Position numbers and translations under genes: made by a program. From sequence record OR594179: a DNA stretch of 44,656 nt. One strand, written 5' to 3'. The notes under the pieces were generated by a model, which saw nothing but the letters and a program-made list of their open reading frames with translations, ran no database searches and was not told the DNA's origin. How positions within the stretch are numbered: the first letter of the stretch is position 1; every line of letters begins with the position of its first letter. This document shows positions 1 through 6,374 of the stretch, one piece after another. The DNA comes from Escherichia phage vB_EcoM_SHAK7163.

Positions 1-332
1 CCTAGGTTATAGCTTAGTAGACTACCTAGGTTGTACTTAGTTGGGTGGCTTAGTAACAGCTTAGTAATGTACCTTAGTTAGTCTTAGTGTCAGACCTCAG
101 TGATTGCACATGCAAGCATGTAAGATGCTAATAGGTCGCGGTCGGTAGACCGCTAAGAAGAAGTAATAGTAATAAGATGCAGTAGGAGGAACACCAGAAA
201 CCTAGCCAACCTAGCCTATCCTAGCTCTGTATCTCTTGCTTCTTCCTTAGTCTCACATGTTAGACAACCTAGGTTTACCTTAGTAGTTGTGACATGTATC
301 ACATAAATAATCTATCTTAGTGAAACTTAGTG

Positions 333-361
333 TTGACACAGGCAATCAACAAGTATACATT
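333..361 (+). promoter_or_regulatory. candidate host sigma70-type early promoter (TTGACA-N17-TACATT)
   Basis: TTGACA at 333-338, 17-bp spacer, TACATT at 356-361, upstream of the first early ORFs; T7-like phages start infection from host-RNAP promoters at the left end. Confidence 0.4.
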
Positions 362-510
362 AGCAATCACTGAGACGGACCTAGCAAGCTGTCTCAGGTT
401 ATAAGCAGGAGAATTGATGCGTAAGCCATAGCTAGTGGATGTAGTCGCATGAAGGCTTGAGTAAGGGCCGTTTAATACCTTCTTCCTCTGGAGACAACGC
501 TTATAACACC

Positions 511-526
511 GCTCTTTAACAATCTG
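511..526 (+). repeat. conserved early-intergenic motif GCTCTTTAACAATCTG, copy 1 of 4 (candidate RNase III processing site)
   Basis: Near-identical 16-17 nt motif present once in each of four consecutive early intergenic regions, each flanked by complementary arms. Confidence 0.4.
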
Positions 527-581
527 CTTAGTGTAACCTATGTATGCCGTGGTTAATTACTTATTGAATGAGGTATTAACT

Positions 582-713
582 ATGAGTTTAGCAACGCTGA
601 GTTATGAAGAAATGTATGCAGCCTACTACAACGCATTAGATGAAGGAGAAGAAGCATTGACCTTCGCTGAGTTTATGGAGGCTTTATGGAGTTTCTATCA
701 TGACTCTAAATAA
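582..713 (+). CDS. hypothetical early protein (43 aa)
   Basis: ATG preceded by GAGGT SD-like sequence; below the 60-aa cutoff of the ORF track; acidic small protein. Confidence 0.35.
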   Translation: MSLATLSYEEMYAAYYNALDEGEEALTFAEFMEALWSFYHDSK

Positions 714-876
714 CCGTGAACTATCCGTTCTCTTCACTCTGTTATGTTACATGATTCGTAATAACGAATTACTTACAGATGACGAGATGGCACTATATCA
801 CCGCTTTCTTAACGAAGGTTGGACAGATACAGTTAACCAGAAACGTGACTTGATGAAGGAGTTAGGCAATGTATAA
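700..876 (+). CDS. hypothetical early protein (58 aa)
   Basis: ORF overlapping neighbours by a few codons, typical of packed T7-like early regions; weak SD. Confidence 0.3.
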   Translation: MTLNNRELSVLFTLLCYMIRNNELLTDDEMALYHRFLNEGWTDTVNQKRDLMKELGNV

Positions 877-1078
877 GCATGAGATTTACACGGCTTGCAA
901 TAAATCGGCTAAGGTTATCATTGAGATGTACAAGGCAGAATGTCAGGCGTACAACCTCAATGATGGTACCGAGATGTTTTATCTTCAGTTTGAAAGCAAG
1001 TTATCTCACAAACGAGTGATTAGCAGTCTTAATCAACACTCTTTAGATTGGGAAGAAGTGAACAGCAATAAACTTTAA
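869..1078 (+). CDS. hypothetical early protein (69 aa)
   Basis: ORF with AGGAG SD 7 nt upstream. Confidence 0.5.
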   Translation: MYKHEIYTACNKSAKVIIEMYKAECQAYNLNDGTEMFYLQFESKLSHKRVISSLNQHSLDWEEVNSNKL

Positions 1079-1148
1079 ATTAACTATTGACAGCCACGGC
1101 ATACAAGGTTACATTAAGCATCAAGACGGCGACGTCTTTAAACATCCC

Positions 1149-1165
1149 GCTCTTTAACAATCTGG
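1149..1165 (+). repeat. conserved early-intergenic motif, copy 2 of 4
   Basis: GCTCTTTAACAATCTGG; preceded by hairpin AAGACG-GCGA-CGTCTT. Confidence 0.4.
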
Positions 1166-1204
1166 CTAGTGCCTTGGTAGGCTAACTACTTACTAAGGTG
1201 AACT

Positions 1205-1417
1205 ATGAACTACTGCGACATCGCTCACGAATTACGCATGGAACGTGAGAAACAAGAAAGGCGTATTATCAAGAAGATGGCTGTACTGCTTGCACACTAT
1301 AAGGCAGACAAACAGCCAACACATGATGAGTTCGTTGACTTCTGTAACATGTATCTTAATGTGAGTAAGGCCACTGGTTACAGATGGCTTAAAGCACTGA
1401 ATGATGGAGAATTGTAG
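1205..1417 (+). CDS. hypothetical early protein (70 aa)
   Basis: ORF with AAGGTG SD; follows conserved intergenic motif. Confidence 0.5.
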   Translation: MNYCDIAHELRMEREKQERRIIKKMAVLLAHYKADKQPTHDEFVDFCNMYLNVSKATGYRWLKALNDGEL

Positions 1418-1460
1418 TAATAAGCCAGCTTAATAGCTGGCCTATCAAGGCACTAACCTA

Positions 1461-1477
1461 GCTCTTTAACAATCTGG
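1461..1477 (+). repeat. conserved early-intergenic motif, copy 3 of 4
   Basis: GCTCTTTAACAATCTGG lying in the loop between complementary arms CCTATCAAGGCAC and GTGTCTTGATAGG. Confidence 0.45.
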
Positions 1478-1516
1478 TTTGTGTCTTGATAGGCTTACTA
1501 ACAAAGGTGAACTATC

Positions 1517-1681
1517 ATGACTAACGCACAACGTAAACGCTATGATGCATTGCAAGAGAAACTTGCTGTTGCTTATGCCGCTTGGCAAGCTAACACAGAC
1601 AAGAGCAAACACGATAAACTTTATAGTAAAGTGGTTGCAATTAATGCTAAAATAGATAAACTTGTGAATAGTATCTTATAA
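1517..1681 (+). CDS. hypothetical early protein (54 aa)
   Basis: ATG after AAAGGTG SD; below ORF-track cutoff. Confidence 0.4.
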   Translation: MTNAQRKRYDALQEKLAVAYAAWQANTDKSKHDKLYSKVVAINAKIDKLVNSIL

Positions 1682-1723
1682 GATAGTTGCTGGCACTAGC
1701 CAGCCTATCAAGGCACAAGCCAC

Positions 1724-1740
1724 GCTCTTTAACAATATGG
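1724..1740 (+). repeat. conserved early-intergenic motif, copy 4 of 4
   Basis: GCTCTTTAACAATATGG preceded by hairpin GCTGGC-ACTA-GCCAGC and arm CCTATCAAGGCAC. Confidence 0.4.
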
Positions 1741-1830
1741 GTAGTCGCTTCTTAGTCTGGATAGGTTAAACCTAGGGTGTTCTTTTGAGTGCCCTATAAT
1801 GTAACCTAACTAACTAATGAGGATTAAATC

Positions 1831-2160
1831 ATGGAACGTAACGCTAACGCTTACTACAACCTTCTGGCTGCAACTGTTGAAGCATTCAACGAGCGCATCA
1901 AGTACGATGAGATTCGTGAAGATGATGATTACTCTGATGCACTGCATGAGGTTGTAGATAGCATGGTGCCAGTTTATTACAGCGAAATCTTTACTGTGAT
2001 GGCTGCTGATGGCATTGATGTTGATTTTGAAGATGCTGGTTTGATTCCTGATACGAAGGATGTAACCAAGATTCTACAAGCTCGCATCTATGAAGCTCTT
2101 TATAATGATGTACCAAATGACAGCGATGTAGTTTGGTATGAAGGCGAAGAAGAGGAATAA
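1831..2160 (+). CDS. ocr: Ocr-like anti-restriction protein (T7 gene 0.3 homolog, DNA mimic)
   Basis: 109 aa; IKYDEIREDDDYSDALHE...YYSEIFTVMAADGIDVDFEDAGLIPDTKDVTKILQARIYEAL matches remembered T7 Ocr (IRYDDIRDTDD...PDTKDVIRILQARIYEQL); strongly acidic with EGEEEE terminus. Confidence 0.85.
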   Translation: MERNANAYYNLLAATVEAFNERIKYDEIREDDDYSDALHEVVDSMVPVYYSEIFTVMAADGIDVDFEDAGLIPDTKDVTKILQARIYEALYNDVPNDSDVVWYEGEEEE

Positions 2161-2354
2161 TAAGATGGAAAGGCAATATAACTTCATATTTTCAGACGGT
2201 GTAACCCTGAAATGTTCCTTACGATTTGCGCAGATTCGTGAGGAAGTGCTAGGTACTACATACAAACTATTTAGCTGACACTATAAGAGAAGGCTTAACA
2301 AGGCGTTGCTACGGTAGCGCCTGATTAAACTTTCACTTACTAGGAGTTAAGATT

Positions 2355-2582
2355 ATGGATTTAGATAGCATCATTATGGCGTTTGCTCTTATTGGCTTAA
2401 GCTGGTGCTCCTATCACCTTTACCGTGAGTTCTTATTTGATAAAGCTAAACGCAAACTAAGAAAGGAAGGCGGTAATTACCTTTGTGTAAGAGGTGGGCT
2501 TGTAGAATACATTGCACCTAACGGCACGGAATGCGCCATTAGCAAAGATGTATTTATAGAAACGTGGCATTACATCAAGTAA
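2355..2582 (+). CDS. small early membrane protein (75 aa)
   Basis: Strong SD TAGGAG; hydrophobic N-terminal segment IIMAFALIGLSW. Confidence 0.55.
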   Translation: MDLDSIIMAFALIGLSWCSYHLYREFLFDKAKRKLRKEGGNYLCVRGGLVEYIAPNGTECAISKDVFIETWHYIK

Positions 2583-2646
2583 CTAGCCTATAGCCTGCAT
2601 GTGTGGGCTATGTGATATTTACTTATCACTATATAAGGTGACTATT

Positions 2647-3570
2647 ATGACTACTGAAAACATCCTCCTGTCTGTCCGTGAAGCTGCAACCGCTGAGATT
2701 AAGCAGCATTTGGATAATATCGGTACTTCTTACATCAAAGTTGGCGCTTGTCTGAATGAATTACGCGGTGATTTCGAAGGTCAAAAAGACTTTTTAGCTT
2801 ATGTAGAATCAGAGTTCGGCATCAAGAAAGCACAATGCTACAAGCTGATGAGTGTAGCCCGTGTCTTTGAAGGAGACGAACGCTTTAAAGGTGTGGCTAT
2901 GCGTGTAATGCTGGCGCTTGTTCCTTTCGCTGATGAAAATATAATCATGGAGAAGGCCGCAGAACTCGCCGCAGATGGCAAGCTGGACACTAACGCCGTA
3001 AACGCCCTGATTGATCCTAAGAAAGAGACAAAGACTGAAACGGTACAATCTAAGGCTGAGGCGGTAAAACCGCAGGAGAATGCGAATGAGGCCGCAGAAA
3101 CTATGCAAGGACATGCGACCTTTGAGAATTTCATCTTAGAGAAGGCGAAAGAGGAGTTACAAAGTGTGCCGCCAGTAAGTGAGTCGGGTAACGACGAATC
3201 CGCACCGTGGGATGAGGAAAGCAAGCCGGAAGCGCCAAAGGCAGCGCCGCTGGATAACACGGCTAATACCGAAAACGCCGCTATGGCTAGCCTCTTAGCA
3301 CAAATTAAGGCACTGACTGAGCAATTACAGGCAGCTAATGACCGCATCGCCTCCTTAAGTAGCGCACGCGAAAGCAAGAAGGCAGCCGCACCTATGCTGC
3401 CGCAATTCAAATCTTCCTGCTTCTATGCTCGCTTAGGTTTAAGCGCTGAGGAGGCAACGAAGAAAACAGCAGTTAACAAGGCACGCCGCGAACTGGTTAA
3501 GCTAGGCTATGGTGAAGGCCATGAAGCATGGCCCTTAATCTCTGAGGCAGTAGAAGAGTTGACTAAGTAA
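2647..3570 (+). CDS. hypothetical early protein (307 aa), function unknown
   Basis: ATG with AAGGTG SD (track ORF starts upstream at 2599 without SD); low-complexity A/E/K-rich central region; occupies the slot just before the RNAP gene. Confidence 0.55.
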   Translation: MTTENILLSVREAATAEIKQHLDNIGTSYIKVGACLNELRGDFEGQKDFLAYVESEFGIKKAQCYKLMSVARVFEGDERFKGVAMRVMLALVPFADENIIMEKAAELAADGKLDTNAVNALIDPKKETKTETVQSKAEAVKPQENANEAAETMQGHATFENFILEKAKEELQSVPPVSESGNDESAPWDEESKPEAPKAAPLDNTANTENAAMASLLAQIKALTEQLQAANDRIASLSSARESKKAAAPMLPQFKSSCFYARLGLSAEEATKKTAVNKARRELVKLGYGEGHEAWPLISEAVEELTK

Positions 3571-3633
3571 CCTTATCGGTGGCATCTTCTTAGGTGTCAC
3601 CTATTAAGGTTTCTTTCACTAGGAGTAAACAAG

Positions 3634-6261
3634 ATGCAAGACCTACACGCTATTCAACTTCAACTTGAAGAAGAAATGTTTAACGGCGGTATCCGTCGCT
3701 TTGAAGCGGACCAACAACGCCAGATTGCATCCGGTAATGAATCAGACACGGCATGGAATCGCCGCTTATTGTCCGAACTAATCGCACCTATGGCGGAAGG
3801 TATTCAGGCTTACAAGGAAGAATACGAAGGCAAGAGAGGTCGTGCACCACGTGCATTAGCTTTCATTAACTGCGTAGGAAACGAAGTGGCAGCATATATC
3901 ACCATGAAAATCGTTATGGATATGCTGAACACAGACGTTACCTTACAAGCAATCGCTATGAATGTAGCGGACCGCATCGAAGACCAAGTACGTTTTAGCA
4001 AGCTGGAAGGTCACGCAGCTAAGTACTTTGAGAAAGTGAAGAAGTCACTTAAGGCTAGCAAGACTAAATCTTATCGTCATGCGCACAACGTAGCGGTAGT
4101 AGCTGAGAAATCTGTTGCTGACCGTGACGCGGATTTCTCCCGTTGGGAGGCATGGCCTAAAGACACCTTGCTGCAAATCGGTATGACCTTGCTCGAAATA
4201 TTGGAGAATAGTGTATTCTTCAATGGTCAACCTGTCTTCCTTCGTACCTTGCGCACTAACGGCGGAAAGCATGGTGTTTACTATTTACAGACCAGTGAAC
4301 ATGTTGGAGAGTGGATAACTGCATTTAAGGAACATGTAGCGCAGCTCAGCCCTGCCTATGCACCTTGCGTTATACCTCCCCGCCCTTGGGTATCACCTTT
4401 TAACGGTGGGTTTCATACTGAGAAAGTAGCAAGCCGTATTCGTCTGGTAAAAGGCAATCGTGAGCACGTCCGCAAGCTGACCAAAAAGCAAATGCCAGCC
4501 GTTTATAAGGCTGTTAACGCTTTGCAGGCAACGAAGTGGCAGGTTAATAAAGAGGTTTTACAGGTTGTGGAGGACGTTATACGTCTAGACCTCGGCTATG
4601 GTGTGCCTTCCTTTAAACCACTCATCGACCGTGAGAACAAGCCAGCTAATCCAGTGCCGTTAGAGTTCCAGCACCTGCGAGGCCGTGAACTTAAAGAGAT
4701 GCTAACGCCGGAACAATGGCAAGCCTTCATCAACTGGAAAGGCGAATGTACCAAGCTGTATACCGCTGAAACTAAGCGCGGCAGCAAATCGGCGGCGACC
4801 GTCCGCATGGTTGGGCAGGCACGTAAATACAGCCAGTTTGACGCCATCTACTTCGTGTATGCACTGGACAGCCGCAGCCGCGTCTACGCGCAATCTAGCA
4901 CGCTCTCTCCGCAATCAAACGACTTAGGCAAGGCATTGCTCCGTTTTACCGAAGGGCAGCGCCTTGATAGCGCTGAGGCGCTTAAATGGTTTTTGGTGAA
5001 CGGGGCTAATAACTGGGGTTGGGATAAGAAAACTTTTGACGTGCGCACCGCTAACGTGATGGATAGTGAATTTCAAGACATGTGCCGTGACATTGCAGCG
5101 GATCCGCTAACCTTCACTCAATGGGTAAATGCCGACTCCCCTTACGGCTTCCTTGCATGGTGCTTTGAATATGCGCGTTATCTGGATGCACTGGATGAAG
5201 GCACGCAAGACCAATTCATGACGCACCTCCCAGTCCATCAAGATGGTAGTTGTTCTGGTATACAGCACTACAGTGCTATGCTACGCGATGCAGTAGGTGC
5301 GAAAGCGGTAAACCTTAAGCCCTCTGACTCTCCTCAAGATATTTATGGTGCCGTTGCGCAGGTAGTAATTCAGAAGAATTATGCATACATGAATGCAGAG
5401 GATGCGGAAACCTTCACTTCTGGCAGCGTGACTTTAACAGGTGCGGAACTGCGTAGTATGGCTAGTGCGTGGGATATGATAGGAATCACTCGCGGCCTAA
5501 CCAAAAAGCCCGTAATGACACTACCTTATGGCAGCACACGTCTAACCTGCCGTGAGTCAGTGATTGATTATATCGTTGATTTAGAAGAAAAAGAGGCCCA
5601 ACGGGCTATTGCGGAAGGGCGTACCGCCAATCCTGTACACCCTTTTGATAATGACCGTAAAGACAGCCTTACACCTAGCGCAGCTTATAACTATATGACA
5701 GCTTTAATCTGGCCTTCTATTTCGGAAGTGGTTAAAGCTCCTATAGTGGCAATGAAAATGATTCGTCAGCTTGCCCGTTTCGCAGCTAAAAGGAATGAAG
5801 GCTTAGAGTATACCCTGCCTACTGGCTTCATCTTGCAACAAAAGATTATGGCTACTGATATGCTCCGCGTATCTACTTGCTTGATGGGAGAAATCAAGAT
5901 GAGTCTACAGATTGAAACGGACGTAGTAGATGAAACGGCAATGATGGGCGCTGCTGCTCCTAACTTTGTGCATGGTCATGATGCCAGCCACCTTATCTTA
6001 ACAGTCTGCGACCTTGTTGATAAAGGGATTACATCTATCGCAGTTATTCATGATTCTTTTGGCACTCATGCAGGCCGTACAGCCGACCTTCGTGATAGCT
6101 TAAGGGCAGAAATGGTGAAGATGTATCAAGGCCGTAATGCACTGCAAAGCCTGCTAGATGAGCACGAAGAACGCTGGTTAGTTGATACCGGAATACAAGT
6201 ACCAGAGCAAGGGGAGTTTGACCTTAACGAAATCTTAGTTTCAGACTATTGCTTCGCATAA
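3634..6261 (+). CDS. T7-type single-subunit DNA-dependent RNA polymerase
   Basis: 875 aa; motifs [43 protein letters not shown] and C-terminal ...SDYCFA closely match remembered T7 RNAP ([22 protein letters not shown], ...FAFA). Confidence 0.97.
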
Positions 6262-6351: not shown

Positions 6352-6374
6352 ATTTACCGGACACTATAGGATAG
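6352..6374 (+). promoter_or_regulatory. phage RNAP promoter
   Basis: ATTTACCGGACACTATAGGATAG; matches the window-wide 23-bp consensus; +1 G predicted at 6369. Confidence 0.75.

Follow-up and report, generated by a model that had tools for sequence, protein, structure and literature searches.

Rrn-type boxA copies and covarying gene-flanking RNA helices point to an rRNA operon-like layout of the early region in a K1E-like Escherichia phage

Four consecutive non-coding gaps in the early region of Escherichia phage vB_EcoM_SHAK7163 each carry one copy of the same short motif, and the question raised by this locus is how the motif and the sequences around it act on the early transcript. The sequence that was analyzed (record OR594179, 44,656 nucleotides, referred to as the window) is 94% identical to Escherichia phage K1E over its first 3 kb, also matches other Vectrevirus and SP6-group phages, and is on this basis assigned to a K1E/K1-5-like (SP6-group) phage. 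An initial annotation of the window had tentatively interpreted the four copies as RNase III processing sites of the type known from phage T7. The present analysis identifies the motif as boxA and leads to a different reading: the early operon is probably laid out like a ribosomal RNA (rrn) operon, with rrn-type boxA copies linking gene-flanking RNA helices and with a Nus-modified host polymerase. This reading is based on the sequence identity of boxA, its position and strand, the covariation of the helices, and the geometric parallel with the rrn operons.

The motif, GCTCTTTAACAAT(C/A)TG(G/C), was found at positions 511, 1149, 1461, and 1724, each time on the + strand. A search with GCTCTTTAACAATMTGG that allowed up to two mismatches returned exactly these four matches in the window (0.00 expected, 100 shuffles), with a single mismatch in copy 1, which ends in TGC. 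All copies are located outside the likely open reading frames (ORFs), in the leader before the ATG at 582 and in the gaps 1079–1204, 1418–1516, and 1682–1830, which confirms the claim that the motif occurs once in each of four consecutive early non-coding gaps. The sequence GYTCTTTAANA is the gammaproteobacterial consensus of boxA, the NusB/NusE site of the rrn operons (Baniulyte et al.). Each of the four copies matches this consensus (0.25 matches expected) and no other match is present on either strand of the 44.6 kb, defining boxA1 (511–527, with the core GCTCTTTAACAA at 511–522 followed by TCTGC), boxA2 (1149–1165), boxA3 (1461–1477), and boxA4 (1724–1740). The phage core is identical to the boxA core of the Escherichia coli rrn leader (CACTGCTCTTTAACAATTTATCAG...), which sits upstream of the 16S rRNA genes and is found about seven times per genome in 5426 out of 5426 complete E. 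coli genomes. By sequence and position, the four motif copies are rrn-type boxA, the NusB/NusE-binding anti-termination element, and the idea that the conserved motif is a signature of RNase III sites was not borne out. NusB/NusE binding and Rho resistance at the phage copies are putative and supported indirectly, through the genetics of the T7 boxA.

Phage T7 carries one copy of the motif in 39,937 bp, at position 813 between promoter A3 (750) and gene 0.3 (925), and this copy is the same 17-mer as copies 2 and 3 of the window. According to Savalia (2010), as cited in PMC3709561, the boxA downstream of the T7 early promoters is an anti-termination element, and its mutations make Gp2 dispensable; the genetically documented element is evidently the 17-mer at 813, the only boxA match in T7. 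RNase III cleaves the mRNAs of T7 at several specific positions while boxA occurs there just once, which rules out the motif as the determinant of RNase III cleavage. In the other genomes that were scanned in full, the consensus was matched twice in SP6, three times in K1-5, twice in K30, and once in PhiM1, and all of these matches, including the one in T7, are on the + strand at positions 656–1467.

The position of the boxA copies relative to the promoters is consistent with a role during transcription by the host polymerase. All four copies in the window follow predicted sigma-70-like promoters: P1 (333–361, TTGACA-17-TACATT, 10 out of 12 consensus positions), which has an equivalent in SP6, and P2 (TTGACA at 1087 to TACATT at 1115), which is kept in the relatives. 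All four precede the first promoter of the phage RNA polymerase (TTAGCTGACACTATAAGAGA, 2271–2290, + strand), and the six further SP6-type promoters found by the scan are located at 6354, 8656, 9543, 15193, 18361, and 40670. The first ~2.2 kb of the window are located after P1 and P2 and before the phage promoter at 2271, so that transcription of this stretch is predicted to depend on the host RNA polymerase alone. The gene for the single-subunit phage RNA polymerase (3634–6261, + strand, ORF call) is downstream of all four boxA copies. The possibility that the motif itself is a phage-polymerase promoter was rejected since the sequences are unrelated and the first such promoter appears only at 2271.

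A boxA close to a start codon might also act as a negative regulator, as at suhB; a Nus complex formed about 45 nt before each start codon would then repress translation, favour Rho termination in this way, and keep early gene expression low. Baniulyte et al. describe boxA elements within 50 nt of start codons that act in this way, and the cores of boxA2 and boxA3 end 44 nt before their respective ATG codons. However, the identical T7 element behaves genetically as an anti-terminator, and a repressive role would place the RNA polymerase gene, which is needed for the rest of the infection, downstream of four repressive copies; this explanation is considered very improbable.

Some observations concern the extent and the annotation of boxA. 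The E. coli rrnG 16S–23S spacer boxA (locus L139, 2096–2114) reads GCTCTTTAAAAATCTGGAT, and its AATCTGG(A/T) extension is shared by the phage motif and by many unrelated phage boxA contexts, so that the functional boxA may extend past the 12-nt core. The fourth copy of K1E (L001, 2238–2251) reads GCTCTTTTAACAA and has one extra T compared with the window, which represents either a real consensus-breaking variant or a sequencing error at the homopolymer in the record of 2005. The feature tables returned for the GenBank records of SP6, K1-5, K1E, and T7 contained no boxA or RNase III features. Genome papers on the T7 group may already have noted boxA.

The sequences next to the boxA copies were analyzed by an inverted-repeat search and by duplex folding of the 42 nt after each copy. 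The sequence directly 3' of boxA1, boxA2, and boxA3 pairs with a distant sequence that ends 0–28 nt before the next boxA, with free energies (dG) of -43 to -48 kcal/mol and z-scores (z) of -7 to -13, and the 5' strand of each helix begins 1–3 nt after the 12-nt boxA core. Two types of helix were found on the + strand. Helix a pairs 524–555, 2 nt after the boxA1 core, with 1091–1121, which overlaps promoter P2 (~29–30 bp, dG -48.1, z -12.6), and encloses three small early ORFs at about 582–713, 700–876, and 869–1078 (ORF calls and K1E annotation). Helix b (~21 bp) is present in two tandem cassettes. In cassette 1 it pairs 1162–1182 (CTGGCTAGTGCCTTGGTAGGC) with 1440–1460 (GCCTATCAAGGCACTAACCTA) around a 70-amino acid ORF similar to K1E gp2.5 (1205–1417), and in cassette 2 it pairs 1474–1494 (CTGGTTTGTGTCTTGATAGGC) with 1703–1723 (GCCTATCAAGGCACAAGCCAC), which stops 1 nt short of boxA4, around a 54-amino acid ORF similar to K1E gp2.8 (1517–1681). 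The cassette 2 gene is also found, framed by the same elements, in the T7-like phage K30.

For cassette 2 the duplex of 1474–1514 with 1683–1723 that encloses the ORF has a dG of -43.4 kcal/mol (z -7.3). The 5' strand of cassette 1 has two candidate partners: duplex folding paired 1162–1201 with 1671–1723 (dG -45.8 kcal/mol, z -7.8), the inverted-repeat search found a nearer partner at 1434–1458 that encloses only the ORF at 1205–1417, and the arm itself scores -37.1 kcal/mol with 1432–1460 and -38.7 kcal/mol with 1695–1723. Overall, cognate arm pairs reach -37 to -48 kcal/mol while non-cognate pairs of an a arm with a b arm reach about -16 kcal/mol. The closing helices are retained in the minimum free energy (MFE) and centroid folds of whole cassettes (z -4.2 to -4.8), and boxA is unpaired in every predicted fold, either as a linker between helices or, at copy 3, in a 17-nt loop. 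No long-range partner was found by duplex folding for the last boxA of the window (1724, z +2.2), for the T7 boxA (z 0.0), or for the last boxA copies of K1-5 and K30.

The same chain of boxA copies and helices is present in SP6, K1-5, K30, and PhiM1 and in eight further phages (phD2B, Kc166A, ECBP5, FBKp16, WAG25P1, MR4, Klebsiella phage 6939, and PST_H2). Both helix types show strong covariation. The helix b alignment (A1) contains 17 distinct units from 15 phages over 21 bp; 93.8% of its cells are paired compared with 22–41% in slid controls, and 14 out of 21 pairs and 41 cells are changed on both sides (0/500 shuffles as high). The helix a alignment contains 10 units over ~30 bp; 95.8% of its cells are paired (24–37% in slid controls), with 12 out of 30 pairs and 23 cells changed on both sides. 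For helix a, shuffles reached the observed values in 0/500 cases for four of the five measures and in 11/500 cases for the fifth, the further pair types. Among the internal pairs there were 25 G·U cells and two A·C cells, an asymmetry which indicates that the pairing is selected in the + strand RNA, unlike the pairing of a DNA-level inverted repeat.

The latter point is relevant for an explanation in which boxA acts as a Rho anti-terminator only and the arms are a DNA-level linker or boundary for the recombination of cassettes, with no function in the RNA. Small ORFs from sixteen unrelated families are flanked by these arms, depending on the phage and subfamily, and the junction, consisting of the hairpin, the 3' arm, boxA, the 5' arm, and the translation-initiation region, is ~85–90% identical across Molineuxvirinae, Studiervirinae, Corkvirinae, and Gajwadongvirus, as expected for such a linker. 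However, the arms differ between cassettes and remain complementary through two-sided changes, and no excess of G·U over A·C on the + strand is expected for a DNA inverted repeat. Recombination and RNA function can moreover coexist, and cassette exchange may ride on the same junctions. A purely DNA-level role for the arms is therefore judged improbable.

Conservation within the helices is uneven. The inner 7–8 bp of helix b (UGAUAGGC with GCCUAUCA; A1 columns 14–21/28–35, window 1175–1182/1440–1447 and 1487–1494/1703–1710), located beside a 6-bp hairpin, are nearly invariant in the 17 units while the outer 13 bp covary freely, which suggests a sequence-specific role of the inner base pairs, such as a cleavage site or a protein contact. 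The 3' strand of helix a (1087–1121 and its homologues) always holds a complete sigma-70-like promoter (TTGACA-N17-TACATT or GATATT). The hexamers of this P2-type promoter are fixed in 10 out of 10 variants and its spacer covaries with the distant 5' strand of helix a; transcripts that begin at P2 would be without the helix a 3' strand.

A helix after every phage boxA is not claimed as a general rule. A total of 164 boxA contexts was drawn from IMG/VR and GenBank loci, and a dG of -45 or below was reached in 7.9% of them compared with 0.9% of random positions. This set is dominated by SP6-like relatives, and the helix claim is for this reason limited to the families in which covariation was found.

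The initial annotation had also placed copies 3 and 4 between complementary arms and had described short hairpins in front of them. The two hairpins were recovered with small coordinate offsets, GCCAGC-TTAATA-GCTGGC at 1424–1441 and GCTGGC-ACTA-GCCAGC at 1689–1704 (both + strand), where they abut the helix b 3' strands of cassettes 1 and 2, respectively. Their 6-bp stems covary, the variants among the phages being GCUGGC/GCCAGC, GCCAGC/GCUGGC, GCUUGC/GCAAGC, GCUGAC/GUCAGC, and the G·U-containing GCUGGC/GCUGGC. Folding of each intergenic region supported the complementary arms at copy 3, where CCTATCAAGGCAC (1441–1453) and GTGTCTTGATAGG (1481–1493), parts of the helix b 3' strand of cassette 1 and the helix b 5' strand of cassette 2, form a stem of 13+4 bp with boxA in the 17-nt loop (z -5.25, -29.3 kcal/mol). 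At copy 4 the left arm is present (1704–1716), the right side is degenerate (CTTAGTCTGGATAGG), and the local fold is weak and irregular (-21.2 kcal/mol) and is not used in the MFE structure. Copies 1 and 2 showed no local arms or significant local structure on folding (z +0.8 and -1.2). A further small hairpin, AAGACG-GCGA-CGTCTT (1123–1138, + strand, also in the centroid fold), is placed like a boxB, after the predicted P2 start and before boxA2.

If each motif copy were positioned in the loop of a local arm hairpin that forms a T7-type RNase III site, with the motif as part of the recognition element, a fold like that of copy 3 would be expected, and this fold is also part of the global MFE structure of 1122–1835; early RNA of T7 is indeed cut by RNase III between genes. 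In contrast, copies 1, 2, and 4 do not conform, the motif is identical to boxA and present once in T7, and in SP6, phD2B, and FBKp16 the arm before a boxA is not complementary to the arm after it. In SP6 and phD2B the two arms come from different helix families, which prevents them from pairing; in SP6 this follows from the reversed order of helix types a and b. Phage MR4 contains two adjacent b-type cassettes with differing arm sequences, and at their junction only the 8 invariant anchor base pairs could form locally whereas 20–21 bp form with the gene-flanking partner. The arm patterns of MR4 and SP6 thus identify the gene-flanking helix as the conserved unit, not the stem with the motif in its loop, and the boxA-enclosing hairpin appears to be a by-product of two similar tandem cassettes in the window and in K1E. 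The chance that the local hairpins are the functional unit is accordingly rated as small. Of the proposed T7-like system, the arms stand as genuine pairing elements of the RNA that covary strongly; the motif and the local geometry do not.

RNase III processing of the early RNA is nevertheless plausible, with a geometry other than the one first proposed. The best candidate for a local T7-type RNase III site is an extended irregular hairpin (1736–1833, + strand, z -3.6) that comes after boxA4 and just before the ocr-like (T7 gene 0.3-like) gene. A hairpin of this shape is also formed in K1-5, where compensatory changes maintain it, and the region was compared with T7 813–930; the R0.3 RNase III site of T7 is at the matching position. 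Strong local hairpins were also observed just 5' of genes in the part of the window that the phage polymerase can transcribe, at 3571–3609 before the RNA polymerase gene (z -3.5) and at 2586–2639 before the gene that starts at 2647 (z -2.4). Both are candidates for T7-like RNase III or stabilizer hairpins, and the R1 site that precedes T7 gene 1 has a position similar to that of the former. Terminators at the junctions were rejected, as the arms have no T-run and a terminator scan found none there. An Rfam scan of 300–3700 (E ≤ 1) gave only a spurious microRNA match on the palindrome 2278–2349. The literature that was searched contained no transcript-end data for K1E, K1-5, or SP6.

The rrn-like layout of boxA copies and gene-flanking helices suggests the following course of events. 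Through binding of NusB/NusE to the four boxA copies in the nascent RNA, the host polymerase would take on a faster, Nus-modified form that resists Rho. Going by the function of boxA in rrn and T7, this effect would extend over the ~200 nt of untranslated leader and on through the early genes as far as the polymerase gene. Each boxA would serve as a single-stranded linker between two long helices. The 21–32 nt 3' of boxA would form the 5' strand, and the 3' strand, preceded by the 6-bp hairpin in the b-type, would follow the next gene or genes, so that each early gene or gene cluster would be bracketed like the 16S rRNA between leader and trailer. The length of the 19–30 bp duplexes and the example of rrn suggest that RNase III would cut them, and the mono- or oligocistronic mRNAs set free in this way would keep their 5' and 3' ends paired. 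A new boxA after each helix or cleavage would reload the Nus complex, as the spacer boxA does in rrn, and would also serve the transcripts from P2. The most speculative step is that the 5' strand, tethered through boxA near the RNA exit channel, may aid the formation of the long-range helix.

Several points weigh against this course of events. Nus binding, read-through, and cleavage are putative, with RNase III action read from duplex length, and boxA can also mediate repression, as it does at suhB (Baniulyte et al.). The long-range helices must form across 160–540 nt of translated RNA. When 1122–1835 is folded as a whole, an outer helix (1162–1182/1703–1723) surrounds the local hairpin of boxA3, and the tandem gene-by-gene topology is therefore not the sole possibility in the window; thermodynamics alone does not choose between the tandem and the nested topology. 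The 3' partners in alignment A1 were taken as the best-pairing GCCTAYC site of each locus, a choice that brings in a slight selection bias, even though most loci offered no more than one or two candidates. Random-position controls reached a dG of -40 or below in 5.5% and of -45 or below in 0.9% of cases, and isolated examples outside the SP6-like families are for this reason weak on their own. Finally, T7 grows without RNase III, so that processing may be dispensable.

The last point bears on an explanation in which the helices are real but are not RNase III substrates, and instead protect the RNA ends from RNase E or 3' exonucleases or tune downstream translation. It would agree with growth of T7 in the absence of the enzyme, with covariation that shows selection for pairing rather than for cleavage, and with the end of the 5' strand ~10–15 nt before a conserved Shine–Dalgarno and start context. 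On the other hand, near-perfect duplexes of 19–30 bp are the substrate class of RNase III in rRNA precursors and the layout copies that of rrn, where cleavage is established. We regard helices with such an uncleaved role as unlikely, and the rrn-like operon with putative RNase III processing as the preferred reading.

A wider version of this reading, which we put forward tentatively and with less than even confidence, is that the early operon of SP6/K1E-like and several other enterobacterial Autographiviridae is an rrn mimic assembled from portable cassettes that are tethered, excised by RNase III, reloaded through boxA, and exchanged between subfamilies. The cassette would consist, in order, of boxA, the 5' strand, the translation-initiation region, one small ORF, the 6-bp hairpin, and the 3' strand. 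A b-type frame with boxA, a 5' arm, a conserved T[TA]ACT...AAGGTGAACTATCATG start region, an ORF, a hairpin, and a 3' arm was observed in the window (1162–1723) and in loci L003, L007–L009, L072, L090, L120, L127, and L131–L138. The 20 distinct small ORFs that it carries (36–95 amino acids) form 16 families with no BLASTP relationship to one another. Found in Molineuxvirinae, Studiervirinae (K30, Kc166A), Corkvirinae (PhiM1), and Gajwadongvirus (ECBP5, MR4), the frame looks like a portable early-gene cassette.

Other arrangements around boxA were seen in viral contigs. Two unrelated contigs (L109 and L027) contain a boxA followed by a 5' arm with its partner just past a single ORF: in L109 (4531–5361) the ORF has 202 amino acids, with an N-terminus that resembles a GIY-YIG endonuclease by eye only, and the dG is -47.9; in L027 (3208–3785) the ORF has 156 amino acids and the 31-bp helix has a dG of -38.9, which is within reach of the random controls. 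In the IMG/VR loci L093, L094, L031, and L083 a consensus boxA is located directly 5' of a sequence that resembles tRNA genes, by appearance only. About 25 IMG/VR loci on contigs of varying length (e.g., L016 at 1352, L054 at 9750, L021, and L049) share the arrangement ...AAAAAAGCGCCCTACAGGACGCTTA-GCTCTTTAACAATCTGG..., a hairpin directly followed by boxA, and in some of these a downstream ATCTGGATATCCCCAACAAC pairs with GTTGTTGGGGATATCCAGAT ~650 nt further on. At the left end of the window, positions 1–330 contain many short repeats of the CTTAGT/CCTAGG type that resemble the repeat arrays near the genome ends of T7-group phages.

BoxA in T7 was already known, as were Nus anti-termination, leader–trailer helices, and RNase III processing in rrn. 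What appears to be new is the presence of several boxA copies, each linking covarying helices that flank protein-coding cassettes, in at least four groups of Autographiviridae. A literature search did not find boxA linked with SP6-like phages, K1E, or K1-5, or with leader–trailer helices in phage mRNA, although an earlier description in subscription journals is possible. Annotations of these sites should read boxA and not RNase III site. For rRNA it is debated whether the Nus/boxA complex is mainly an anti-terminator or an RNA-folding chaperone, two roles that are hard to separate there from ribosome assembly. If the proposed mechanism is true, the phages use at the mRNA level the RNA-chaperone role proposed for the rrn anti-termination complex. 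Short dispensable phage cassettes with a boxA, a covarying helix of 21–30 bp, and a measurable protein would make the chaperone question testable. The arrangement could also explain how the host polymerase may stay processive, and probably fast, from the leader through the early genes as far as the phage RNA polymerase gene. It further suggests a reason for the conservation of the intergenic junctions, which in four Autographiviridae groups are some of the best conserved DNA, and a way for unrelated small early genes, likely involved in host takeover or anti-defence, to swap in and out.

Among known systems, the 5' untranslated region of suhB and the leaders of CRISPR arrays resemble the phage arrangement in having a consensus boxA in a non-rRNA leader that controls Rho termination, and RNA looping tethered by such boxA elements has been proposed to influence processing. 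They differ in being single elements with no reported gene-flanking helices, and the suhB element is a repressor. The nut sites of phage lambda share the boxA-dependent assembly of Nus factors on the host polymerase for read-through of the early operon, which is predicted in the present phage. The lambda boxA is a shorter variant, CGCUCUUA, whereas the phage boxA is the full rrn consensus, preceded by a hairpin as in rrn; the boxB hairpin of nut is bound by protein N, and no N-like protein turned up in the window, where no search for one was made. T7 has the same 17-mer, GCTCTTTAACAATCTGG, likewise after the host promoters and before the ocr/0.3 gene, and in the window boxA4, the extended hairpin, and the ocr-like gene (1831–2160, + strand, similarity and ORF call) mirror the T7 succession of boxA, structured region, and gene 0.3. 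T7 differs in having a single boxA with no significant long-range partner in place of four copies with gene-flanking helices, and its RNase III sites are local hairpins.

The closest parallel is the rrn operon itself. Warner et al. describe the order of elements in rrn operons as boxB, boxA, boxC, with a second set upstream of the 23S rRNA; in their account boxC is located within the 5' strand of a leader–trailer helix of 25–40 bp that is cleaved by RNase III, and in one current model the NusB-bound boxA holds this strand at the RNA exit of the polymerase until the trailer emerges. The duplex protocol used for the phage recovers the 16S leader–trailer helix when applied to E. coli rrnG (dG -56.3, z -9.5), with a 5' strand that starts 0 nt after the 12-nt boxA core and a 3' strand that begins 6 nt past the 16S 3' end. 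The rrn operon and the phage share the identical boxA core, a hairpin 5' of boxA, the 5' strand of a 20–30 bp long-range helix 0–3 nt after boxA, and a 3' strand after the enclosed RNA followed by a further boxA before the next unit. The phage differs in having up to four tandem units, no boxC sequence, a putative dependence on Nus factors and putative cleavage, and a cargo of one to three small translated ORFs (160–540 nt) instead of structural rRNA. In their length, their covariation, and their place after boxA the phage helices fit the rRNA-type leader–trailer helix, and since they enclose small protein-coding ORFs and not rRNA they are an analogue of the rRNA leader–trailer family rather than a member of it.

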